Below, piece by piece: positions 1 to 9,340 of a stretch of 64,000 nucleotides of DNA. A program made the position numbers and the translations under genes. The notes under the pieces are model-generated. The model saw only the letters and a list, made by a program, of their open reading frames with translations, did no database searches and was not told where the DNA came from. How positions within the stretch are numbered: position 1 is the stretch's first letter; the number at the start of each line of letters is the position of its first letter. The stretch comes from Escherichia phage vB_EcoP_PE007: the sequence record OQ938542.1; one strand, given 5' to 3'.

Positions 1-324
1 ATGACTACTCAAGCTACTGTACGTATGACCGCAGGAACTTTACTTGGTACTGTTAACTCAGCTGCTACTACTGTTGCAGATACATTCGGTACAGCAACTA
101 AAGCAGTAGGTATGCTTAATTCATATGTTAGTACTATGGCAGAGAAACAAGCCATTCGTACTAAATTAGAAATGCATACATTCGTTAATAAACTGGCAGA
201 GGAAACAGCTATGACTGAGACTCTGCGTAAGAAAAGTATCGAGGAATTCTGCAAGGATTCAGAGAACGCTCGTATCTATAACGCAGAATATTCAAAAGTA
301 ATTGACATCCTGACTAAAGACTAA
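1..324 (+). CDS. hypothetical early protein (may be 5'-partial at window edge)
   Basis: ORF from window position 1, 107 aa; followed by hairpin terminator. Confidence 0.4.
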   Translation: MTTQATVRMTAGTLLGTVNSAATTVADTFGTATKAVGMLNSYVSTMAEKQAIRTKLEMHTFVNKLAEETAMTETLRKKSIEEFCKDSENARIYNAEYSKVIDILTKD

Positions 325-332
325 GTCACCTA

Positions 333-358
333 GGAGGCTCTTCGGAGTCTCCTTTTAT
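333..358 (+). terminator. intrinsic terminator
   Basis: 8-bp GC-rich stem (ggaggctc/gagtctcc, one G-U) with ttcg loop then T-run. Confidence 0.6.
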
Positions 359-412
359 AAACATTAGATAGATAGTCAAAAGTAGATAACTATTCTACTT
401 TGGAGATAGATA

Positions 413-751
413 ATGACTAAGTACATTTGCATAAAATCATTAACTAAAGATGTTCCTGTAGGAACAGAACTAGTAGGAAGATTCCACTCACCAGGAAGAT
501 TCATTCTTACCGAAGATAGTAAATTAAAGTGTGTATCAGGAATAGGACCACGTTGGTACAAAGATGACCAACTACCTCTTCTAGGTGCTTTATGGGTATG
601 GCAATGCCAAGACCCTATTAAAGCTTTAGAACGCTATGAGAAAGCTGTTCGTGCCCATGAAATGCTTGGTGCTCAAGACCCAGAAGATTGGCCTGGAATT
701 GAGAAAGAGTATGAATCTGCTAAGGCAGAATTGCTTAAACATTTGTATTAA
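413..751 (+). CDS. hypothetical early protein
   Basis: 112-aa ORF, GGAG RBS upstream of ATG. Confidence 0.5.
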   Translation: MTKYICIKSLTKDVPVGTELVGRFHSPGRFILTEDSKLKCVSGIGPRWYKDDQLPLLGALWVWQCQDPIKALERYEKAVRAHEMLGAQDPEDWPGIEKEYESAKAELLKHLY

Positions 752-756
752 AAACC

Positions 757-773
757 AGGAAGCTCCGCTTCTA
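757..773 (+). promoter_or_regulatory. candidate virion-RNAP early promoter hairpin (stem gaagc/gcttc, loop tcc)
   Basis: 5-6 bp stem with 3-nt loop, preceded by aaaacca, ~30 nt upstream of next ORF; architecture known for N4 vRNAP promoters. Confidence 0.5.
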
Positions 774-805
774 TTGGGTATCATTTAACTATTGGAGATT
801 AAGCT

Positions 806-1012
806 ATGCGTATTCAAACTTCCTTATTTGCAAACAAGAGTAACAATGGTGGATTGTTAGGTAAGATGAATGCTCAATGGAATCTATGGTTCTCAGAGAT
901 TACTAACGTAATAGAAAGACAGCACTATGTTGCTTGTCACACATTCCCTGTTAAACCTACCAAGAAACAAATCCGTAAATTACGTAGAGAGTTTCGCAAA
1001 GAAGCAATCTAA
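806..1012 (+). CDS. small early protein, basic C-terminus; paralog of 1664-1849
   Basis: 68-aa ORF with RBS; shares C-terminal KPT[KR]KQIRKL motif with ORF 1664-1849. Confidence 0.5.
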   Translation: MRIQTSLFANKSNNGGLLGKMNAQWNLWFSEITNVIERQHYVACHTFPVKPTKKQIRKLRREFRKEAI

Positions 1013-1016
1013 AACC

Positions 1017-1033
1017 AAGACGCTCCGCGTCTT
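1017..1033 (+). promoter_or_regulatory. candidate virion-RNAP early promoter hairpin (stem aagacgc/gcgtctt, loop tcc)
   Basis: 7-bp stem, 3-nt loop, same aaaacca upstream motif as hairpin at 757. Confidence 0.5.
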
Positions 1034-1139
1034 ATGGATGATGTAAATGCATCCACTAATCATTGAACTTTTATCCCTTTGTTTGGGTGTTCTCACCGAC
1101 GAGTTCACCCGTAAATCACATAAATCTGGAGAGTACAAA

Positions 1140-1520
1140 ATGTCTATTCAAAAATTCACTTTCGGTCAATCTAACGCTGCTGCTACCACTGCTAAAGCTG
1201 ATAAACCAAAAGCTCAGTTCTGGCTGAACATTGGTTATGTAGCTAATGAAGGCTCTGATGATGAGAAATTCATCTCACTGCCTACTGGTATTCCACTGGA
1301 TACTCAGGAACCGCTGCCTACTAATAGCAGCAATGCTGACTTCCGTGCTATGCGTTGTGCACAGAATGACTTGCTGGAACAGTTAATCGCTTATGCTCAG
1401 AACCTGGAACCAGGTGAAGAAGGTATCATTAACCTGCAAGTTCAACTTCGTCGTGTGAAAGCAGAGGCTGCTGACATCCCAGCAGACGAGAATAAATATG
1501 CTCGTAAACTGACTTTCTAA
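1140..1520 (+). CDS. hypothetical early protein
   Basis: ATG at 1140 with GGAGA RBS (in frame with longer ORF from 1047); 126 aa. Confidence 0.5.
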
Positions 1521-1529
1521 TCAACCAAT

Positions 1530-1558
1530 AGACTCCCTTCGGGGAGTCTTTTATTTTT
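1530..1558 (+). terminator. intrinsic terminator
   Basis: agactccc-ttcg-gggagtct stem-loop followed by tttatttttt. Confidence 0.7.
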
Positions 1559-1663
1559 AACTAGACGATAAGCTATTTCTACTTTTTGAGTATCTTTAGA
1601 CGAAGGGTACTGAAACAGTAACCAGATAAATATAGATTTATATTAGATGAAGGAGTAACCATT

Positions 1664-1849
1664 ATGCGTACATTATGTAGCCGTTATAACTCGCAGAAGA
1701 TGATTAATATGTTACAACCTTGGGGCAGTAAGATGACACTGAACGCACGTTGGCAGGTATCTGTAAAAGATGAAAATGGTCAGTGTTATGACCACTTCTT
1801 TGTAGCTAAACCTACTCGTAAACAAATCCGTAAACTTCATAAGGCATAA
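1664..1849 (+). CDS. small early protein; paralog of 806-1012
   Basis: 61-aa ORF, AGGAG RBS; conserved C-terminal KPTRKQIRKL. Confidence 0.5.
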   Translation: MRTLCSRYNSQKMINMLQPWGSKMTLNARWQVSVKDENGQCYDHFFVAKPTRKQIRKLHKA

Positions 1850-1853
1850 GACT

Positions 1854-2072
1854 ATGTTGGACTTCATTGCGTTTGTAATACTCTGCTATGTGCTATATCG
1901 CCTACGTGGTTACATTCTCAATGGAGCCAAGTGGGTAGTTACTAAGCTAGTACTTATCCGTAAGTTACCAGTTGTATTCATTAAGTGTCTGTTTGCTTCC
2001 ATCATAGCCAAAGAAGTTCGTAAGCAGCTATGGGCTAAGGAAGCTGAAGAGTTTGCTAAGAGGAACCAGTGA
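1854..2072 (+). CDS. hypothetical protein
   Basis: 72-aa ORF immediately after previous stop. Confidence 0.4.
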   Translation: MLDFIAFVILCYVLYRLRGYILNGAKWVVTKLVLIRKLPVVFIKCLFASIIAKEVRKQLWAKEAEEFAKRNQ

Positions 2073-2251
2073 TATTCACTAACATAGAAGATGCCATTGA
2101 AGAATGTATCTTTCGTAGGTATCACACTGGTGTACAGAAACGACACTATGGTGTTGTACAACTCAATGGCTATCAAATGGTTGTAAGAATTGTACGTAAC
2201 AATAAACCTTTTAACTTTATGTGGAGTACTAAATCATGCGTAAATCATTAA
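2069..2251 (+). CDS. hypothetical protein (GTG start)
   Basis: 60-aa ORF filling gap, GAGGA upstream. Confidence 0.3.
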   Translation: MIFTNIEDAIEECIFRRYHTGVQKRHYGVVQLNGYQMVVRIVRNNKPFNFMWSTKSCVNH

Positions 2252-2364
2252 TCATGGGAACCAGAGAAGACGTGCAAAAGATGAAAGAACGTCTGGTTGC
2301 TAAGAAACAGTCGTCTGAACCAGTACGTAAGATTGTTACCTTCAACCATTCATGTATCAAGTAA
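2236..2364 (+). CDS. small hypothetical protein
   Basis: 42-aa ORF not in track, ends just before terminator. Confidence 0.25.
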   Translation: MRKSLIMGTREDVQKMKERLVAKKQSSEPVRKIVTFNHSCIK

Positions 2365-2368
2365 CTAG

Positions 2369-2399
2369 GAGTCCTCCATTAGGAGGGCTTCTATTTTTT
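2369..2399 (+). terminator. intrinsic terminator
   Basis: cctcc-atta-ggagg stem-loop plus T-run. Confidence 0.6.
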
Positions 2400-2442
2400 A
2401 TTCCTGAATAGTTAGATATGTATTTGAATAGGAGAAATAACC

Positions 2443-2751
2443 TTGAATGAAATTGTTTGTATACTTCCTCATTCAGCTAAGATAGCCGACCGGAATATAC
2501 GTATTCACCTACCATTCCCATTAAGTAATCCATTCACTCGTAATGAAAGAACCACAGTAGAAGATGTAGAGGTAGCTTATGAGGCTTATCTTCGTAATCG
2601 TCTTATTAGTGGTGACAAGTTAATTACAGCAGAGATGGAAAGGATTGCATCCTTTGTAACAGATAGTACAGGTAAGCCTGTTGGCTTAATCGGTACTGAA
2701 TCTGATGTGAATGTTATTCGTAAAATATTAATGGAGGTATTAAATGGCTAA
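2443..2751 (+). CDS. hypothetical protein (TTG start)
   Basis: 102-aa ORF; AGGAG 8 nt upstream of TTG. Confidence 0.45.
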   Translation: MNEIVCILPHSAKIADRNIRIHLPFPLSNPFTRNERTTVEDVEVAYEAYLRNRLISGDKLITAEMERIASFVTDSTGKPVGLIGTESDVNVIRKILMEVLNG

Positions 2752-2974
2752 ATATAAAGTAATACGTTTTGCAGATAATAAACGTGGCATTGGTGCAGAA
2801 GTAGAGAAGAAAACATTCTTTGGAACCAGCACATGGGTGAAGATTGCTACACCTGGTTACGATGAATGCTTTGACAAATGGGTTAATAAAGCAACGGGTA
2901 AATCTGGGTATGCTGATATTTGCATGTCACAGCTTAATGACTTCTATACTGCCAATCACATTACTAAGGAGTAA
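2744..2974 (+). CDS. hypothetical protein
   Basis: 76-aa ORF with GGAGG RBS. Confidence 0.5.
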   Translation: MAKYKVIRFADNKRGIGAEVEKKTFFGTSTWVKIATPGYDECFDKWVNKATGKSGYADICMSQLNDFYTANHITKE

Positions 2975-2979
2975 ACAAA

Positions 2980-3201
2980 ATGTTGTTCAGCACTAATTAT
3001 GGAATCTGCCCAATCTGTAAGAAAGGAAGAGGAGTTGCTAATCATAAGAAGTGTAGTCGTATCCTACAGAAACAACGGAACCAGAAAGAATGGGATAGGA
3101 TATTGGAAAACCAACACAAAGATGAGTTCAAGAAGACGGCTGTTAAGGCATCTACTCAGCTCATTCGTCGTACTAACTTCATAGAAGGTTATCAGAGATG
3201 A
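2980..3201 (+). CDS. small basic Cys-containing protein (possible zinc ribbon)
   Basis: 73 aa; CPICKK...KKCSR motif; RBS present. Confidence 0.45.
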   Translation: MLFSTNYGICPICKKGRGVANHKKCSRILQKQRNQKEWDRILENQHKDEFKKTAVKASTQLIRRTNFIEGYQR

Positions 3202-3554
3202 AACTAATAGTGGCTGGTGGAAGAGACTTCGTAAATACCCAAGTAATGATTACAGTATTAATGGATTTAGTGGAGAAGGGTAAGATTGACCCTAATCCAG
3301 AATTAGTATGTGGTATGGCTCGTGGAGCAGATATATTAGCTTTCCGACTATGGAAATCTGCAAATATGCAGATACATGTATTCCCTGCTGAATGGGATAC
3401 CTATGGTAAATCTGCTGGATTCCGAAGGAATAAAGAAATGGGTGAGTTTGCAGATGCTGCTGTATGTTTCTGGGATGGTAAATCCAAAGGAACCAAGCAC
3501 ATGATTGATATCATGAATAGACTTAATAAACCTGTATATGTTGTGAGGTACTAA
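3198..3554 (+). CDS. SLOG-superfamily protein (DUF2493-like)
   Basis: 118 aa; GGRDF...GMARGADILAFRLW...AGFRRN...FWDGKSKGT pattern recalled for DUF2493/DprA-LOG-like Rossmann fold. Confidence 0.5.
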   Translation: MKLIVAGGRDFVNTQVMITVLMDLVEKGKIDPNPELVCGMARGADILAFRLWKSANMQIHVFPAEWDTYGKSAGFRRNKEMGEFADAAVCFWDGKSKGTKHMIDIMNRLNKPVYVVRY

Positions 3555-3809
3555 ATGATTATTACATATCCTACGGGTAAAACTGTGGAATATATGAAGC
3601 ATACAATTCAAGTGCCTCATTGGGTTAAGTATATAGCATTACTACCTCGCCAATATAAGAGTGCTAATACCTCACTAATAGGATTCTCTAAGAAGCCTAA
3701 GCTAACAGAAAACAATATCTGGGTATCCTCTGGAAGACAAGAAGAGATTGGTTTTTGTGATTTGAGTATTGTCGATAATAACATCTATGGGACATTGAGA
3801 AAGGTATGA
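3555..3809 (+). CDS. hypothetical protein
   Basis: 84-aa ORF. Confidence 0.45.
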   Translation: MIITYPTGKTVEYMKHTIQVPHWVKYIALLPRQYKSANTSLIGFSKKPKLTENNIWVSSGRQEEIGFCDLSIVDNNIYGTLRKV

Positions 3810-4120
3810 AAACTATTCTAATAGTACATGATTCTACATTTACTGATGTAGATAAGATGATGCGTAATATTGATTATGTATCTCAGACAAGCCAAGCATT
3901 CAATGAAGAGTTTACTCTGTACTGTAATGCTGAATCTCCGCTGGTTCCTATCCTTAAGGAATCAGGTCTACCATTCTCTACAGAGAACTTCCCGGAAGAA
4001 CCAGACTATGTAATTTCATTTATCTATGACTTACATGATGGCTCTGAAACTAGTGAACTAGCTATGAACCAGTGGCGTAGTAAACGTCCTGTGTTTGCAT
4101 TTCAGGTACTTAAACCATGA
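3806..4120 (+). CDS. hypothetical protein
   Basis: 104-aa ORF, start overlaps previous stop. Confidence 0.5.
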   Translation: MKTILIVHDSTFTDVDKMMRNIDYVSQTSQAFNEEFTLYCNAESPLVPILKESGLPFSTENFPEEPDYVISFIYDLHDGSETSELAMNQWRSKRPVFAFQVLKP

Positions 4121-4500
4121 AGATTATGTCATTAGGTGACGACACCAATGCTTTACTAGGTGTATCTGCACGTCCAATCATCATTGTTAATAAACATCAC
4201 GGTAAATCTGGTGAGTATATTGGGCGTGGCTCACCATTAGGCAATCCATTTGTCATTGGTAAAGACGGTTCGAGAGAACAGGTTATAGCCAAATATCGAG
4301 TATGGCTTAATGAACAAATTATGAGAAAGAATCCAGTTGTACTGGATGAACTTAATCGTCTTGGTAATAAAGCCATTGACGAGAAAGGATTAGCCTTACA
4401 GTGCTTCTGTTATCCGAAACCATGTCATGGCGAGGTTATTAAAGAGAAGCTAGTGAAAGCTATGTATAACTATTTTGTGGAGAATCCCAATGGCATTTAG
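4117..4500 (+). CDS. DUF4326-like protein
   Basis: 127 aa; GSPLGNPF...YRVWL...CFCYPKPCHGEV pattern recalled for DUF4326. Confidence 0.4.
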   Translation: MKIMSLGDDTNALLGVSARPIIIVNKHHGKSGEYIGRGSPLGNPFVIGKDGSREQVIAKYRVWLNEQIMRKNPVVLDELNRLGNKAIDEKGLALQCFCYPKPCHGEVIKEKLVKAMYNYFVENPNGI

Positions 4501-4873
4501 TGATATTAACCATCCAGCTTTATGGGGTATTTTACATATCCCAAGTAATAAGTTATTGCGTCAATATCCTAAAGGGTATGGGCATACTCAATTAGACGTT
4601 GAAGATCCAGTTAATCATGAAAGACGCAAACGTGGTATTAATTTACCACCTCGTCTGTTCACTGATGAAGATACAGCTAAAAGGGCATTAACTAGTTGGT
4701 TAGCTGGTTCCTGGAAAACTGAATTAGAGTATGAATCAACTGACGAATATGGTAGTGGGTTCTATTATAGGGATGTACCATCACCCCATAAAAAGGCAAA
4801 TCGTATTAAAGAGGATATGAAAGTAGTTCCTGTTTATCTATATACAGATGCAAAAGAGGAACTATATGTCTAA
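4490..4873 (+). CDS. hypothetical protein
   Basis: ATG at 4490 inside ORF 4475-4873; 127 aa. Confidence 0.45.
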   Translation: MAFSDINHPALWGILHIPSNKLLRQYPKGYGHTQLDVEDPVNHERRKRGINLPPRLFTDEDTAKRALTSWLAGSWKTELEYESTDEYGSGFYYRDVPSPHKKANRIKEDMKVVPVYLYTDAKEELYV

Positions 4874-5051
4874 ACAATGCAAATGTGGTAAAGGCCATGT
4901 ATCCCAGTGGGATGGTAAATGTGGCCATTGCCGAACCAAGAAAGAGCAACGTGACCATGAATATGCTCTTACTTACTTAGAATTAACCAGAGCCAACAAC
5001 AATATGACCACACACGATGCTTATATTTATAACAGAGAGGCATGTAAATGA
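4848..5051 (+). CDS. small Cys-rich protein (CxC...CxxC)
   Basis: 67 aa; CKCGKGH...CGHC suggests zinc binding. Confidence 0.45.
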   Translation: MQKRNYMSKQCKCGKGHVSQWDGKCGHCRTKKEQRDHEYALTYLELTRANNNMTTHDAYIYNREACK

Positions 5052-5398
5052 AAGAAATCTTAGTATTCACTACCAATGTACTTGGGCAGCATATCAATGC
5101 TGCTGCCAAATTAGCATATAAGAAGCATGGTGCTCGCTGGGGTATGGCCTATGGTCATTATGGTAATAGCTTTGCCATTCCAGTAAAGGATGGTTATGGT
5201 AACCGGATTAAAGAGGGTACTATCTATGGCTTCATTGAAGGTTTCATTGCCTATGCATCTTCTAATCCACAATGGGATTTCAAAGTTATGAGTAATGACT
5301 ATCTGGACCCATACCAATTCATTAACGTAACTGGAAATGTACTGTTACCAGAAGCATGGCGTAAACACTTAGGCGATGCTTACAACTACTGGAGTTAA
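5048..5398 (+). CDS. hypothetical protein
   Basis: 116-aa ORF, start overlaps previous stop. Confidence 0.5.
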   Translation: MKEILVFTTNVLGQHINAAAKLAYKKHGARWGMAYGHYGNSFAIPVKDGYGNRIKEGTIYGFIEGFIAYASSNPQWDFKVMSNDYLDPYQFINVTGNVLLPEAWRKHLGDAYNYWS

Positions 5399-5400
5399 TA

Positions 5401-5661
5401 ATGACTTATGAAGAATTATGGTCTGCTCAAGTCAGAGCCAGAGCACTTACACGACACGATATCTATTGTGCATTACAGAACGAATTAAAGAGTCGTACTA
5501 AGCTGGGTCACATATCTGGTTTAGTTAAAATACCTATGACTAGCCTAGTATGGCCTTATCAGAAGAAAAATAATGAATTTAATGGTAATGGATTGCATGT
5601 ACGCATCGACTACATCGGTAATGAAAATAGTATTCGTATTACCTTTTGGACTAAGCGTTAG
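5401..5661 (+). CDS. hypothetical protein
   Basis: 86-aa ORF. Confidence 0.5.
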   Translation: MTYEELWSAQVRARALTRHDIYCALQNELKSRTKLGHISGLVKIPMTSLVWPYQKKNNEFNGNGLHVRIDYIGNENSIRITFWTKR

Positions 5662-5666
5662 GTAAT

Positions 5667-5681
5667 AGCTGCTCCGCAGCT
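5667..5681 (+). promoter_or_regulatory. candidate virion-RNAP early promoter hairpin (stem agctgc/gcagct, loop tcc)
   Basis: 6-bp stem, 3-nt tcc loop, 13 nt upstream of next ORF. Confidence 0.45.
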
Positions 5682-5693
5682 TAAGGATATGAA

Positions 5694-5927
5694 ATGTCAG
5701 TATCAATTCAGCAGATCATAGCTAAGAAACATAAACATAAATGGGGTAATTATCCAAAGATTAAAGAAGCAGTTAAAGGGGCATATGAAAGCCCTAATAA
5801 TTGGTGTGAAGTAGAATTATCCTTCCCGTGGGCATGGAGACATAACTTCCATGGAAACTACATAAGAATGTATTACCGATGTGCTAGTGAGCATAAAACC
5901 AGGTCTCTAATAGCAAGTATTGTTTAA
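5694..5927 (+). CDS. hypothetical protein
   Basis: 77-aa ORF. Confidence 0.45.
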   Translation: MSVSIQQIIAKKHKHKWGNYPKIKEAVKGAYESPNNWCEVELSFPWAWRHNFHGNYIRMYYRCASEHKTRSLIASIV

Positions 5928-5947
5928 ATTAATTAGGAGAATAAGCG

Positions 5948-6766
5948 ATGTACTCATCAATTGAACATCAGAAGCAACTCGAAAAACTATTCAATAAAAA
6001 TCAGCTCTTGCCTCGCATGAGGAAGGAATTCGAGGACTCCGAAGAAATTGACTTTAAGGCATTCGCTGCCTATTTAGAAATTGATTATAAGCTGCTCATT
6101 GATGCAATGGTGCAGATTGCCTTACATAAACGTGCTGACATCCAGACTATGATTGGCTCTCTCATGAGTCACTCAGATGACGCTCAGTACATCGCTGACT
6201 GTCTGTATAAGATGGCAGAGAATGACTGCTTCAACTATGACCCTACCATCGACAAGTTCGGTGTTATTTATGAGATTAGTGAAGATGTACAGATGGAACT
6301 GGAGGCATTCCAGTATCCTTTGCCTATCGTAAGTGCTCCTAAGCCTGTTAAGTGTAATCGTGATACTGGTTACTACGAAAGCAGGGGTAGCATCATTCTC
6401 AAGAAGAACCATCATGAAATGGATGTCTGTCTTGACCACATCAACCGTATGAATAACCAACGTCTCTGTATTAACTGGGACGTTGCTAACTATGTAAAAG
6501 ACTCTCGTCCTAACATGGATAAACCCAAAGAAGGTGAAACCCGTCAGGACTATGAGAAACGTGTTAAAGCCTTTGAGAAGTACAGCCGTACAGCTAAGGA
6601 AGTAATGGAGTTAGTGACCAAAGAAGGTAATAACTTCTCCTTGGCTCACAAATATGACAAACGTGGGCGTACATATGCCTGTGGCTACCACATCAATTTT
6701 CAGGGAACCAGCTACAACAAAGCTGTACTTGAGTTCGCTGATAAGGAGTTAGTAAATGAAGACTAA
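5948..6766 (+). CDS. RNA polymerase II small subunit-like (N4 gp15-like)
   Basis: 272 aa immediately upstream of a T7-like RNAP catalytic fragment; size and position as in N4. Confidence 0.5.
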   Translation: MYSSIEHQKQLEKLFNKNQLLPRMRKEFEDSEEIDFKAFAAYLEIDYKLLIDAMVQIALHKRADIQTMIGSLMSHSDDAQYIADCLYKMAENDCFNYDPTIDKFGVIYEISEDVQMELEAFQYPLPIVSAPKPVKCNRDTGYYESRGSIILKKNHHEMDVCLDHINRMNNQRLCINWDVANYVKDSRPNMDKPKEGETRQDYEKRVKAFEKYSRTAKEVMELVTKEGNNFSLAHKYDKRGRTYACGYHINFQGTSYNKAVLEFADKELVNED

Positions 6767-6917
6767 CATTGGATCCTATGAGCTATGGGTTAATGAAGAG
6801 TGTATCTACTCAGGTACATATGTGAAGTGCTTATACTTTGAGAAGCTTTACAAGCTTCAAAACCCTGAGAGTAAAACCATTATTTATAAACTATCTGCCG
6901 ACGTAGTAACTGGCTAA
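6756..6917 (+). CDS. small hypothetical protein
   Basis: 54-aa ORF not in track, between the two RNAPII genes. Confidence 0.3.
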   Translation: MKTNIGSYELWVNEECIYSGTYVKCLYFEKLYKLQNPESKTIIYKLSADVVTG

Positions 6918-6974
6918 TCCATCCAATAAGCAGGCTCTCCATAGTGGGGAGCCAAGAAGCAAAAGGAACATAAA

Positions 6975-8192
6975 ATGCAACTGTTAACCGCTCGTGAATA
7001 CCTGAAAGTAGATATTGCTAATAACTATGGCTTAGATAAGAAGACATGGGATGAGCGTATTGCCTGGTTCGATGAGAACGAAGCTAACCTGCTTAATCTG
7101 GTAGATGAGGCAGAGGATTCCGCTCTGTTCTTTGCAGGTATAAACGCATGGAAAGACATGAAAGCAGGTAAGCCTATCGGTTATGCCGTAGCTCTGGATG
7201 CTACATCATCTGGCTTGCAGTTACTGGCCTGCCTGACTGGTGACCGTTCTGCTGCTGAACTGTGTAATGTAGTTAACTACATGGGAGAGAATGGTAAGCC
7301 ATTACGTCGTGATGCTTATACAGTTATCTATCACAAGATGCTGGACATCCTTGGTGAAGCATCACGTATTAAACGTAGTGACACTAAGCAGGCAGTTATG
7401 ACTGCATTCTACGGCTCAGAAGCCAAGCCTAAAGAAGTATTCGGTGAAGGTATTCGTCTCAAGACTTTTGAGAATGTAATGGAAACTGTTGCTAGTGGTC
7501 CTTGGGCATTGAACAAGTTCTTACTGCAATGTGGTAATCCAGATGCCAACCGTTACATATGGATACTTCCTGACAACTTCCATGCTGTCATTAAGGTCAT
7601 GGTTCCAGAAGTACAGACTGTTAACTTCTTAGGCAAACCGTTCGACATTACTCGTATGGTTCAGGGTACTGAAGAGAAGACTCGTATGCTCTCTGCTAAC
7701 ATCACCCACTCTATTGATGGAATGGTGGTACGTGAGATGCTACGTCGTTGTAACTTCGACATGAACCAGGTGGGCTATATTAAGTCCCTTTGCGAGGGAA
7801 CAGGTGATTACATGGTTGGATCTGATGATAACTATGAAATGGTTAATACACTGTGGACTAGTTATGAGAAATCAGGCTTCCTGTCTACTCGTATCTTTGA
7901 CTATCTGGATTCAGAAACCATTGCATTGGTTGATACAGATGTAATCCTGGCTATGCTCAACACTATGCCTAAGAAACCATTCCCTGTAATGACTGTACAT
8001 GACTGCTTCCGTTGCCATCCTAACTACGGTAATGACCTGCGTCGTCAATACAATCAGATCTTGTCTGACATTGCTAAGAGTGACTTACTGGGCTTCATTC
8101 TGTCTCAGGTACTGGGACAAGAGTTCTCTGCTGGTAAGCTGGATGACAGCCTCTGGCAGGACATCCTTGAAACAGACTATGCGTTGAGTTAA
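6975..8192 (+). CDS. RNA polymerase II large subunit-like, T7-like single-subunit RNAP catalytic fragment (N4 gp16-like)
   Basis: 405 aa; DATSSGLQLLA resembles T7 RNAP motif A (DGSCSGIQH) and MTVHDCF resembles motif C (HDSFG). Confidence 0.65.
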   Translation: MQLLTAREYLKVDIANNYGLDKKTWDERIAWFDENEANLLNLVDEAEDSALFFAGINAWKDMKAGKPIGYAVALDATSSGLQLLACLTGDRSAAELCNVVNYMGENGKPLRRDAYTVIYHKMLDILGEASRIKRSDTKQAVMTAFYGSEAKPKEVFGEGIRLKTFENVMETVASGPWALNKFLLQCGNPDANRYIWILPDNFHAVIKVMVPEVQTVNFLGKPFDITRMVQGTEEKTRMLSANITHSIDGMVVREMLRRCNFDMNQVGYIKSLCEGTGDYMVGSDDNYEMVNTLWTSYEKSGFLSTRIFDYLDSETIALVDTDVILAMLNTMPKKPFPVMTVHDCFRCHPNYGNDLRRQYNQILSDIAKSDLLGFILSQVLGQEFSAGKLDDSLWQDILETDYALS

Positions 8193-8199
8193 TAAACTA

Positions 8200-8232
8200 G
8201 CCTCATTCCTTCGGGAGTGAGGCCTATTTTTT
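8200..8232 (+). terminator. intrinsic terminator
   Basis: 10-bp stem gcctcattcc/ggagtgaggc, ttcg loop, ctatttttt. Confidence 0.7.
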
Positions 8233-8249
8233 GCTTGGAGGTAACAACT

Positions 8250-8432
8250 ATGCTAATCCCTTTTGAAGTAATCTTTCAGCTAATACTGATAGTTTTATCT
8301 GTACTGGTTCTGTCTACAATAGTTCATGCCCACAAATCTAAGTTTGCTTATTACTACTATGGAGCATATTCACTAGGCTGCTTTGTAATGGCAGGATGGA
8401 TAGCTTTTGCTATCTACTGTGTAAACAACTAA
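8250..8432 (+). CDS. small hydrophobic membrane protein
   Basis: ATG at 8250 with GGAGG RBS; 60 aa mostly hydrophobic. Confidence 0.45.
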   Translation: MLIPFEVIFQLILIVLSVLVLSTIVHAHKSKFAYYYYGAYSLGCFVMAGWIAFAIYCVNN

Positions 8433-8459
8433 CCCTCCTAACGGAGGGTTTATTTTTTT
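8431..8459 (+). terminator. intrinsic terminator
   Basis: ccctcc-taac-ggaggg plus 9-T run. Confidence 0.7.
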
Positions 8460-8506
8460 ACATGTCATGTATACTAACTCTGCTATTTACTTATGAGGAA
8501 ATTGAT

Positions 8507-9340
8507 ATGCCAACTTTAAAAGTAGGTTTTAACAAAACCACTAATGTTGCAACTGTACTGGATGCCAGTGGTTCTATCCCAGGTGGTTCCGTAGAAGTAG
8601 GAACCTTTGTACACCCAGATGCCACTTACCCTGATAGCTTAGTTATCTTCCATGGTGTTCGTGACCTGCTGTATAAACGTTCTGCTAAAGACCCAAGTAA
8701 AGTAGGCTTCTGGCCTAACAACATCGTGGATATGCAGTCTATCTCTATTGATATGAAAGCTACTCCACGACTGACTATTGCTACCAAACTGCCACGTGTA
8801 GTCTCTGCTATTGAAGGTGAAGATATTAACTGGCACGTTGATGTAGCAGGTGGGAAAGCACCATTTACTTATAAATGGCAATTCAAAGCTGATACTGCTG
8901 GTGCAGCATTCGCTGATATTAGCTCCAGTACTAACCCATCTGCTGCTACTGCAACATTGACCCTTAATGATGTAACAGCTACTTCTGCTGGTACTTACAA
9001 AGTGATTGTTACTGATGCTAATGGAACCACGGTAGAGGATGGGTCACTATTAGCTGTAGGCTATTACGAAGCAAGCTCACTGGTAGCTACTCCTGCTTCA
9101 CTGGCTCTGTCTGTTGCTGCCGATGCTGTTGCTGGTAAGACTGTAACAATTGTTGCTATGCCCGTTGGTTCATCTGCTGGTACTTTGTCTATCAAGACTG
9201 CTCCAGATTCTGCTCGTGCTACGGCTACCATTGCTGGTAACGTACTGACAGTTAAACCAGTGGCTGCTGGTGATACTACTTCTGTAGTAGTTACCAACGG
9301 TATAGTCGATGTAACCATCCCTGTTACTGTTGCAGAATAA
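8507..9340 (+). CDS. Ig-like domain protein, candidate capsid decoration protein (N4 gp17-like position)
   Basis: ATG 8507 with GAGGA RBS; 277 aa; Ig-like sequence features (FTYKWQF...TSAGTYKVIVTD); sits just after RNAPII genes. Confidence 0.5.
   Translation: MPTLKVGFNKTTNVATVLDASGSIPGGSVEVGTFVHPDATYPDSLVIFHGVRDLLYKRSAKDPSKVGFWPNNIVDMQSISIDMKATPRLTIATKLPRVVSAIEGEDINWHVDVAGGKAPFTYKWQFKADTAGAAFADISSSTNPSAATATLTLNDVTATSAGTYKVIVTDANGTTVEDGSLLAVGYYEASSLVATPASLALSVAADAVAGKTVTIVAMPVGSSAGTLSIKTAPDSARATATIAGNVLTVKPVAAGDTTSVVVTNGIVDVTIPVTVAE

Follow-up and report, generated by a model that had tools for sequence, protein, structure and literature searches.

The DNA we analyzed (the window) is a stretch of 64,000 nucleotides from Escherichia phage vB_EcoP_PE007 (sequence record OQ938542.1), a 72-kb podovirus. 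It is a Gamaleyavirus of the Schitoviridae, a G7C/Bp4-like relative of N4, which bears out the 'N4-like' of a first-pass annotation made from the letters alone. What concerns us here is a block of small genes packed tightly as an operon, with stop and start codons overlapping at, for example, the starts of its SLOG and DUF4326 genes. By synteny the block sits between homologs of N4 gp1/gp2 and of the RNAPII subunits gp15/gp16, all of them early products in N4 (PMC4496689). Its features are as follows.

759..771, minus (template) strand: candidate N4-type vRNAP early promoter, hairpin GAAGC-GGA-GCTTC, assigned by inference
1016..1034, minus (template) strand: candidate vRNAP early promoter, hairpin AAGACGC-GGA-GCGTCTT
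2366..2393, plus strand: strong intrinsic-terminator-like hairpin, 12 bp stem and T-run, immediately 5' of the gene block
2443..2751, plus strand: degenerate DUF4326 paralog, 102 aa, N4 gp9 homolog; TTG start, preceded by an AGGAG ribosome-binding site
2980..3201, plus strand: small ORF, phrog_6887; its stop overlaps the SLOG start codon (ATGA)
3198..3554, plus strand: YAcAr/DUF2493 SLOG-domain protein, 118 aa, accessory gene (Pfam PF10686, phrog_289)
3555..3809, plus strand: small ORF between the SLOG gene and the gp11 homolog, matching phrog_1972
3806..4120, plus strand: N4 gp11 homolog, phrog_7827, ending in a stop codon that overlaps the start of DUF4326
4117..4500, plus strand: DUF4326 protein, 127 aa, core early gene, N4 gp12 homolog (PF14216)
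5048..5398, plus strand: A1S_2505-family protein, phrog_2072, N4 gp14 homolog (NCBIfam NF049995 at 3.7e-23)
5665..5683, minus (template) strand: third candidate vRNAP early promoter, hairpin AGCTGC-GGA-GCAGCT
5948..8192, plus strand: N4 RNAPII subunit homologs (gp15-like 5948-6766, gp16-like 6975-8192), closing the early block

The first-pass annotation had singled out two of these, at 3198-3554 and 4117-4500, and both are open reading frames at exactly those coordinates on the plus strand. Both are real genes, under purifying selection among relatives (dN/dS 0.29 for the SLOG gene, the fastest-evolving of the block, and 0.10 for DUF4326). The first-pass annotation took them for early genes, and early they appear to be: the block is syntenic with the early block of N4, and three candidate N4-type hairpin promoters bracket it. 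The hairpin at 759..771, with its 3-nt loop 5'-GGA-3' closed by C:G, agrees with the N4 vRNAP promoter rules on which we based the assignment (PMC4496689). At the far end, the RNAPII homologs are identified by a match to Pfam RNA_pol PF00940 and by relatives' annotations, and a terminator follows them at 8200-8223. Synteny from gp1/gp2 through to gp15/gp16 thus supports placing the SLOG and DUF4326 genes in a vRNAP-transcribed early block orthologous to N4 gp9-gp14.

The SLOG protein (MKLIVAGGRDF...CGMARGADILAF...SAGFRRNKEM) matches PF10686 over profile positions 1-66 of 66, at an E-value of 1.7e-8 and 34.6 bits against a curated gathering cut-off of 28.2 bits, and phrog_289 at 1.2e-29. Pfam describes PF10686 (YAcAr, formerly DUF2493) as the 'YspA, cpYpsA-related SLOG family'. 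The SLOG/DUF2493 assignment made by eye therefore stands up to a profile HMM, and all three motifs quoted for it (GGRDF, GxARGAD and AGFRRN) are there. So is the pattern of the superfamily, GGR, GxAxGxD, RN and GxGT, with glycines in the loop following strand 1 and conserved polar residues following strands 2-4. When free, fused and ORF83-type members (we return to ORF83 at the end) are aligned, G7, R9, G39, A41, G43, D45, N78, G94, G98 and T99 are invariant.

The accompanying description, 'DprA/LOG-like', holds at the level of the SLOG superfamily but no further, for DNA_processg_A (E<=1), the LOG motif and Pfam LOG all go unmatched. LOG phosphoribohydrolases (Cg1261, PDB 5WQ3) have an arginine (R77 in the window protein) and GxGT at equivalent positions, but their motif PGGxGTxxE, with the catalytic Glu, was not found in the SLOG protein, which reads DGKSKGTKH. 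Aligned SLOG relatives carry H, N, Q, G or D at the Glu position, and because it varies, the protein may be read either as an enzyme or as a binder. A structure predicted from the single sequence reached a pLDDT of 61. Its best structural matches include YpsA, the ThsA SLOG domain with 3'cADPR, and CARF, with generic Rossmann folds doing equally well; Foldseek matches also include ShosA, DprA and, weakly, DNPH1. With that pLDDT, we treat the fold matches as weak evidence. At the sequence level the ThsA SLOG of Thoeris and Bacillus subtilis YpsA share 13-14% identity with the window protein, and the window SLOG carries neither SIR2 nor any other attached effector.

GenBank labels for such SLOG proteins read 'DNA processing protein DprA', and one could picture a DprA-like ssDNA binder that aids replication or recombination or shields DNA ends. 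DprA does belong to the SLOG superfamily and, like ShosA, turns up among the Foldseek matches; there are fusions of YAcAr domains with SF1 helicases (ICP1 HelB, the J2-1 helicase) and with a 3'-5' exonuclease, and two fusion partners match Pfam DNA_processg_A. The window protein itself gives no such match at E<=1 and is a single domain of 118 aa with none of DprA's additional domains, while N4 and three Gamaleyaviruses replicate without it. Nor does ORF83 have the residues for DprA dimerization and RecA binding (EVADES). We rejected the DprA/Smf identity, and consider a DprA-like role highly improbable. Two other readings were set aside. For the label 'GTP-binding domain', attached to phrog_289, Pfam and NCBIfam searches at E<=1 returned no GTPase, and the sequence has no GxxxxGK[ST] P-loop; an 'orphan ShosA-like antitoxin' has as its PADLOC support a single weak match of a fusion protein, P0252, to ShosA (1.9e-4). 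PADLOC returned nothing for any window protein, NCBIfam nothing for the SLOG or DUF4326 (4117-4500) proteins, and PDB sequence searches with single sequences and family profiles of SLOG, DUF4326 and A1S_2505 gave chance-level matches only.

The product of the second gene, 4117-4500, matches PF14216 at E 9.5e-23 and 81.1 bits (gathering cut-off 25 bits) and retains 14 of 14 near-invariant columns (G36, R37, L41, G42, N43, P44, R53, Y60, L94, C96, C98, P100, C103 and H104). The signature GR...LGNPF...R...Y..WL...LxCxCxPxxCH is complete, which makes the product a canonical member of the family. It has a degenerate relative in the same block: the paralog at 2443-2751, which matches N4 gp9 at E 6.5e-51, phrog_464 at 1.1e-16 and Pfam DUF4326 at 0.012, under the cut-off. 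In the alignment the paralog keeps LxNPF and Y..YL and is without GR, R53 and the entire CxCxPxxCH motif. It is nevertheless present in 9/9 relatives at 92-99% identity, with a dN/dS of 0.08.

What might DUF4326 do? The literature we searched reports no experiment on it. Its placement in the rhodanese-phosphatase (Cys-phosphatase) superfamily, on which Burroughs and Aravind have reportedly written a paper, is a proposal. The RapZ C-terminal domain and Cys-dependent phosphatases such as PTEN and the DUSPs are counted among the closest known systems. The canonical C-X5-R active-site loop of that superfamily was not found in 4117-4500, whose loop, C96-F-C98-Y-P-K-P-C103-H104, can at best be read as C-X5-H. 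The label 'NrdA-like ribonucleotide reductase', which DUF4326 sometimes bears, comes from the T4 gene name nrdA.1; the family has no RNR domain.

The A1S_2505-family gene at 5048-5398 matches N4 gp14 at 4.6e-32, and is a shortened allele: N4 gp14 retains the family's HGAGAA and GCGLAG motifs, whereas the window allele aligns without HGAGAA and TRIGCGLAG. It too is under purifying selection (dN/dS 0.11). The label 'ADP-ribosylglycohydrolase' has no Pfam support, with no Macro or ADP_ribosyl_GH match at E<=10 for the window protein or for full-length family members. An hhalign comparison of the family with a Macro-DUF4326 protein gave a weak alignment: 94 columns fall on the Macro domain, with an E-value of 0.002 and a probability of 14%. 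No similarity was found between A1S_2505 and the SLOG profile, nor any correlation among relatives between presence of SLOG and type of gp14 allele.

Five early ORFs of N4 are direct orthologs and follow one another as they do in the window: gp9 (2443-2751), gp11 (3806-4120), gp12 (4117-4500), gp13 (4848-5051) and gp14 (5048-5398). The gp11 homolog is the best conserved gene of the block, with a dN/dS of 0.03, and the 'antirepressor' label it carries found no support in our tests. DUF4326 of the 4117-4500 type is core, present in 9/9 relatives, at 90-100% identity, and in N4 as gp12. The SLOG gene, in contrast, is a single-gene indel, present in 6/9 relatives and missing from 3/9, and unlike the window, N4 has none in its early region or anywhere else in its first 10 kb. 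Of the two, then, DUF4326 alone belongs to the core, and SLOG is an accessory that these phages can do without.

Other genomes tell us who the partners of these proteins are. Among 28 multi-domain relatives of DUF4326, 11 contain SLOG, three NADAR and one Macro, and the SLOG and DUF4326 domains are fused in both orders. Macro and NADAR are ADP-ribose-processing domains. In the corresponding early region of one N4-like phage, SLOG and DUF4326 form a single protein, whose identity to the two window proteins is 57% and 52%, and the A1S_2505 family is fused to DUF4326 in P0260. (P0260 and another fusion, P0242, sit on short phage-like contigs with uninformative gene context.) These mutual fusions, above all the one at the matching early locus, lead us to put SLOG and DUF4326 together, and by this sequence evidence the two genes probably work together. 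The first-pass annotation had proposed a two-gene module. The partnership survives, but the two genes are not adjacent, one of them is accessory, and the linked network also takes in the degenerate paralog (2443-2751) and the A1S_2505 protein (5048-5398).

The idea that such proteins process ADP-ribose (ADPr) is not ours. Iyer, Burroughs, and Aravind (2021, 2022; PMC7824862, PMC9503650) predicted that viral YAcAr/YpsA-like SLOG and DUF4326 proteins process ADPr derivatives, a network that would embrace the SLOG-, Macro- and NADAR-DUF4326 fusions of jumbo phages and amoeba giant viruses, which we reproduced. In the window, unlike those fusions, SLOG and DUF4326 are separate genes, two ORFs apart. 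The counter-defense reading, which the first-pass annotation put forward as sponges or modifiers of host immune signals, is a reasonable one, already in print; what is new here is the SLOG/DUF4326 linkage, the wider network, the distinction between core DUF4326 and accessory SLOG, and the distant homology to ORF83.

Our preferred reading, to which we give a probability of about one half, is that the early operon encodes a co-operating nucleotide-processing set acting on NAD+/ADP-ribose-type immune nucleotides. The set would comprise SLOG, DUF4326, the A1S_2505/gp14-type protein and the catalytically degenerate DUF4326 paralog, expressed from virion-RNA-polymerase promoters within the first minutes after infection. 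Together they would bind and dismantle nucleotides derived from NAD+/ADP-ribose, whether made or attached by the host in the course of an immune response. SLOG would recognize the adenine-ribose moiety, perhaps cleaving the N-glycosidic bond, after which DUF4326 would act on a ribose-linked phosphate through a strand-loop-helix Cys/His pocket (C96-x-C98-x-P-x-x-C103-H104). The purpose would resemble that of Tad1, Tad2, Acb1, Acb2 and Apyc1, early removal of host nucleotide immune signals, by analogy across unrelated protein families.

Tad1, Tad2 and Acb2 suggest another way of reaching the same end. SLOG could be a non-catalytic sponge or sensor that sequesters a host nucleotide signal, and the degenerate DUF4326 and gp14 alleles might be so too. 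The SLOG family does not conserve the catalytic Glu of LOG, ligand-sensing proteins are among the structural matches of the predicted model, and two paralogs devoid of putative active-site motifs (the gp9-like protein and short gp14) remain under strong purifying selection. Yet SLOG domains are recurrently fused to enzyme domains (Macro, NADAR and the Cys/His-bearing DUF4326), the invariance of R9, D45, N78 and T99 would fit catalysis as well, and known sponges have unrelated folds. We regard a sponge as possible, if doubtful.

Housekeeping is an unlikely explanation. Here DUF4326 and a LOG/DNPH1-like N-hydrolase SLOG would tune nucleotide pools for phage DNA synthesis and have no role in immunity. 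The nrdA.1 gene of T4-like and other large phages, which adjoins nrdA, nrdB, nrdD-small or td, is DUF4326; NMPs are the substrates of LOG and DNPH1-type enzymes, and DNPH1 is one of the weak Foldseek matches; and the 90-100% identity of the DUF4326 core is unlike that of typical fast-turnover anti-defense genes. The N4-like copies, however, lie in the early host-takeover block, away from the middle replication genes, the fusion partners are Macro, NADAR and SLOG, none of them RNR or thymidylate synthase, and close relatives dispense with SLOG.

The immune-nucleotide reading can be pushed further, to a more ambitious form that we hold only tentatively and think rather unlikely: a dedicated multi-protein pathway against ADP-ribose/NAD immunity, built of DUF4326 (gp12), a Macro-like gp14, SLOG and dead paralogs. 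In it gp12 would be the active enzyme and SLOG an exchangeable specificity or accessory subunit, and the dead paralogs, gp9 and the short gp14 of the window, would have been kept to trap ligands or to partner in regulation. If it were true, DUF4326 would be a new Cys/His-dependent class of enzyme for ribose-linked phosphates of ADPr derivatives, and the SLOG indel would set which defense (Thoeris, DarTG or Avs3, for example) a Gamaleyavirus overcomes.

More than a thousand sequenced phage genomes contain DUF4326, and more than a thousand contain YAcAr-type SLOG; DUF4326 has about 5,900 cluster representatives. Gamaleyaviruses are easily grown, therapy-relevant coliphages that provide natural experiments (isolates that have or lack SLOG, the two domains split or fused, gp14 full or short), which makes them a convenient system for assigning biochemical function to both families. 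They could also be used to test what has been predicted in print, that phages break down immune signals or marks derived from ADP-ribose. If the test were positive, N4 gp9, gp12 and gp14, for decades unassigned early ORFs, would gain a function, and host-range differences between therapeutic N4-like phages would become easier to explain.

There is one more protein to reckon with, ORF83 of phage DruSM1, and with it the last alternative: that SLOG directly inhibits a STAND/Avs-type sensor at the protein level, as ORF83 might, with no nucleotide chemistry and a separate role for DUF4326. Avs3 is not known to signal through a nucleotide, which would suit such an inhibitor. ORF83 and its ortholog Seurat gp80, a YAcAr SLOG, are catalogued as an anti-AVAST type III protein (EVADES), and the sole experimental phenotype in the family is that DruSM1 without ORF83 plated less well on a host with AVAST type III, or Avs3 (bioRxiv 10.1101/2024.04.14.589459, a preprint). 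The same phenotype, however, attends deletions of the ligase, ORF72 and ORF84 in that study, and so may be indirect; the window protein is only about 28-32% identical to the ORF83 ortholog; conservation on the surface lies in the motifs of the nucleotide pocket; and the SLOG-DUF4326 fusions argue for joint chemistry. We think direct inhibition very unlikely.

The window SLOG does appear, from its sequence, to be a distant homolog of ORF83. Like Seurat gp80 it is a small, stand-alone coliphage protein matching PF10686 (1.7e-8, against 4.9e-18 for gp80), and the two share GGRDF, GxAxGxD, FPAxWD, AGxxRN and GxGT with ORF83. Against gp80, BLASTP gives 28% identity and the multiple alignment 32%. 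Unlike the window protein, gp80 carries an insert of 15 residues, and it comes from a siphovirus (Queuovirinae) rather than an N4-like early region. Three of the four predicted AMP-contact residues of the ORF83 type, R89, N90 and T112, are kept as R77, N78 and T99; the fourth, D114, is H101 in the window.

The phage is a Gamaleyavirus, G7C/Bp4-like and belonging to Schitoviridae, the N4-like family (the taxonomy lines of its relatives agree), which bears out the N4-like origin proposed in the first-pass annotation. A 3-kb stretch around the two genes of interest matches 63 phage records, nearly all Escherichia/Shigella Gamaleyaviruses, with Escherichia phage 24-32N on top at 92% identity. Both ORFs lie exactly where that annotation had placed them. 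ORF 3198-3554 (118 aa) contains the GGRDF, GMARGAD and AGFRRN motifs from which it had been called SLOG/DUF2493-like, and it matches the SLOG family YAcAr (PF10686, formerly DUF2493) over the Pfam curated cut-off, E 1.7e-8. The call of 4117-4500 (127 aa) as DUF4326-like was equally sound; this is a clear DUF4326 protein (PF14216, E 9.5e-23) that keeps 14 of 14 near-invariant residues of the family.

The genes sit in a block orthologous to early ORFs of phage N4, as judged from the Bp4 annotation and by direct comparison with N4.

Features of the early block (gp, N4 gene product; vRNAP, virion RNA polymerase)
759-771, template (minus) strand, perfect hairpin, candidate vRNAP early promoter
1016-1034, template (minus) strand, perfect hairpin, candidate vRNAP early promoter
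2443-2751, gp9 homolog, E 6.5e-51
3198-3554, plus strand, SLOG gene
3806-4120, gp11 homolog, E 2.3e-60
4117-4500, plus strand, DUF4326 gene, gp12 homolog, E 1.7e-79
4848-5051, gp13 homolog, E 1.1e-28
5048-5398, gp14 homolog, E 4.6e-32
5665-5683, template (minus) strand, perfect hairpin, candidate vRNAP early promoter
5948-6766, homolog of RNAPII subunit gp15
6975-8192, homolog of RNAPII subunit gp16, Pfam RNA_pol

In N4, gp1, gp2, gp15 and gp16 are early products that the injected virion RNA polymerase transcribes from hairpin promoters (PMC4496689). The three candidate hairpins, with stems of 5-7 bp, the same 5'-GGA-3' loop and a C:G closing pair, match the published N4 early promoter rules, flank the gene block on both sides and would fit as the elements that set this phage's early transcription units. 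From ORF 2980 to ORF 4500 the genes are tightly packed, their start and stop codons overlapping or abutting. Synteny makes the predicted early label well founded.

That the two genes form one module, as first proposed, is strongly supported by how often their domains travel together. Exhaustive searching by HMMER, with our DUF4326 protein as query, returned 5,922 cluster representatives; among the 150 best, 28 are multi-domain proteins, and 11 of these 28 carry a SLOG domain (by Pfam, YAcAr in seven, DprA-type SLOG in two, cpYpsA and YpsA in one each). The other partners are NADAR (3), Macro (1), DUF488 (2-3) and a 3'-5' exonuclease (1). SLOG and DUF4326 are fused in either order, implying independent fusion events. 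Closest to home is P0252, a 226-aa SLOG-DUF4326 fusion with 57% and 52% identity to our separate SLOG and DUF4326 proteins, encoded at 6001-6681 on a 69.9-kb Logan SRR25400119 contig (L013) from an uncultured N4-like phage. Its gene lies between gp1/gp2 homologs and RNAPII, the same early position as our pair, with a full-length gp14-type gene downstream (7460-7849). Salmonella phage FSL SP-076, which belongs to another subfamily of Schitoviridae, has separate SLOG and DUF4326 genes 1.6 kb apart. Fusions, shared locus and this second pair argue that the proteins are functional partners.

Selection on the partners was compared across nine Gamaleyaviruses by presence, identity and dN/dS. DUF4326 is present in 9/9 (identity 90-100%, dN/dS 0.10), as is the gp11-like gene (95-99%, 0.03), the most constrained of the early block; phrog_7827 is the sole family assignment of the latter, and the 'antirepressor' label it bears in some records is unsupported. 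SLOG occurs in 6/9 (74-88%, 0.29), has the highest dN of the block (0.16) and is missing from ECBP1, Bp4 and IME11, where homologs of its neighbours 2980-3201 and 3555-3809 abut; it is thus a clean single-gene indel. The first 10 kb of N4 hold no SLOG gene, and the phage collection searched has 63 records with DUF4326 (at least 80% identity) versus 36 with SLOG (at least 60%). In its behaviour SLOG resembles an accessory gene that can be exchanged, and DUF4326 is not strictly dependent on it. A 132-aa ORF at 4475-4873 (TTG start, phrog_23096), overlapping the DUF4326 gene end by 26 nt, occurs in one of the nine relatives (24-32N), so it is a further accessory early gene.

Two more genes belong to the network. 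ORF 2443-2751 encodes a second DUF4326-like protein (phrog_464, 1e-16) that in alignment lacks GR, R53 and the entire CxCxPxxCH motif. N4 gp9 shows the identical loss, which must therefore be old. With a homolog in N4 and presence in 9/9 Gamaleyaviruses (92-99%, dN/dS 0.08), it looks like a conserved and probably non-catalytic paralog. ORF 5048-5398 falls into NCBIfam NF049995 ('A1S_2505 family phage non-structural protein') and phrog_2072, and an A1S_2505 domain is fused to DUF4326 in another protein, P0260. Our allele (dN/dS 0.11) is shortened, missing the Gly-rich HGAGAA and TRIGCGLAG that N4 gp14 and Bp4 orf82 retain; the full-length type in Bp4 and K57alpha1.2 is just 49-52% identical to it. 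In profile comparison, A1S_2505 aligns weakly with the Macro part of a protein that joins Macro to DUF4326 (E 0.002, probability 14%), with Gly-rich motifs in register, and a Pfam search of the family gave no Macro match. We take 'Macro-like' as a lead rather than a result.

What might the partners do? Fusions of YAcAr SLOG and DUF4326 with Macro and NADAR were described in jumbo phages by Iyer, Burroughs and Aravind (PMC7824862), who suggested that the SLOG domains of viruses break down cADPr-like signals and that DUF4326 takes off phosphates linked to ribose (PMC9503650). The families and the functional prediction are thus already in print; the literature we searched reports no experiment on DUF4326. 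The present data show what the proteins are by family, where their genes lie, how they are linked and how selection acts on them; as to substrate, chemistry and purpose we infer, at a probability of about 0.5, that these early proteins co-operate to bind and process NAD+/ADP-ribose-derived nucleotides or ADP-ribosyl marks, blunting host immunity. The adenine-ribose moiety would then fall to SLOG and a ribose-linked phosphate to DUF4326. The DUF4326 motif C96-x-C98-x-P-x-x-C103-H104 lies between a strand and a helix N-terminus, placed like a phosphatase P-loop but different from CX5R, and may just as well form a zinc site. Free, fused and ORF83-type members of the SLOG family invariably have G7, R9, G39, A41, G43, D45, W66, A73, G74, N78, M81, G94, G98, T99 and M102; the LOG catalytic Glu position (our H101) varies (H/N/Q/G/D), so that by its motifs our protein is not a LOG enzyme. 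That the protein is a non-catalytic sponge or sensor is a less likely reading. Slightly less probable still is housekeeping nucleotide metabolism, supported by the place of DUF4326 in T4-like phages as the nrdA.1 gene, adjoining nrdA/nrdB/td.

The SLOG family has one experimental precedent. The EVADES preprint counts ORF83 of coliphage DruSM1 among anti-AVAST type III proteins, gives it a LOG/DprA-like fold and mentions amoeba-virus homologs that are fused to DUF4326. Deleting ORF83 is reported to reduce plating and give small plaques on an AVAST III host, a phenotype shared by ORF55, ORF72 and ORF84 deletions (bioRxiv 10.1101/2024.04.14.589459). The ORF83 ortholog of a related phage, Seurat gp80, carries R89, N90, T112 and D114 exactly as cited for ORF83 and matches PF10686 at 4.9e-18. 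Our SLOG protein shares that family and motifs with gp80, at 28% identity by BLASTP (E 1e-7) and 32% in the multiple alignment; by sequence, it is a distant relative of the sole YAcAr protein for which an anti-defence phenotype has been reported. We consider direct Avs-type inhibition by our protein very improbable, and a DprA-like DNA role marginally more so.

New here are the placing of N4 gp9, gp12, gp14 and their Gamaleyavirus orthologs in the SLOG/DUF4326 network, the split and fused forms inside N4-like early regions, the accessory nature of SLOG and the degenerate yet conserved paralogs. At last, these genes offer a practical system for testing the domains.

Positions 1-9000 are strongly depleted in sigma-70-like promoter matches (8 versus 28.2 +/- 5.9 in shuffles) and enriched in terminator-like hairpins (18 versus 4.7), among which those at 1530-1549, 2366-2393, 8200-8223 and 8431-8450 are strong. 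A 35-nt direct repeat (952-986 and 1807-1841, 80% identity) lies within small early ORFs 806-1012 and 1664-1849, whose C-terminal ends are alike (...KPTKKQIRKLR and KPTRKQIRKLHK); repeat and ends together suggest that the two are paralogous.
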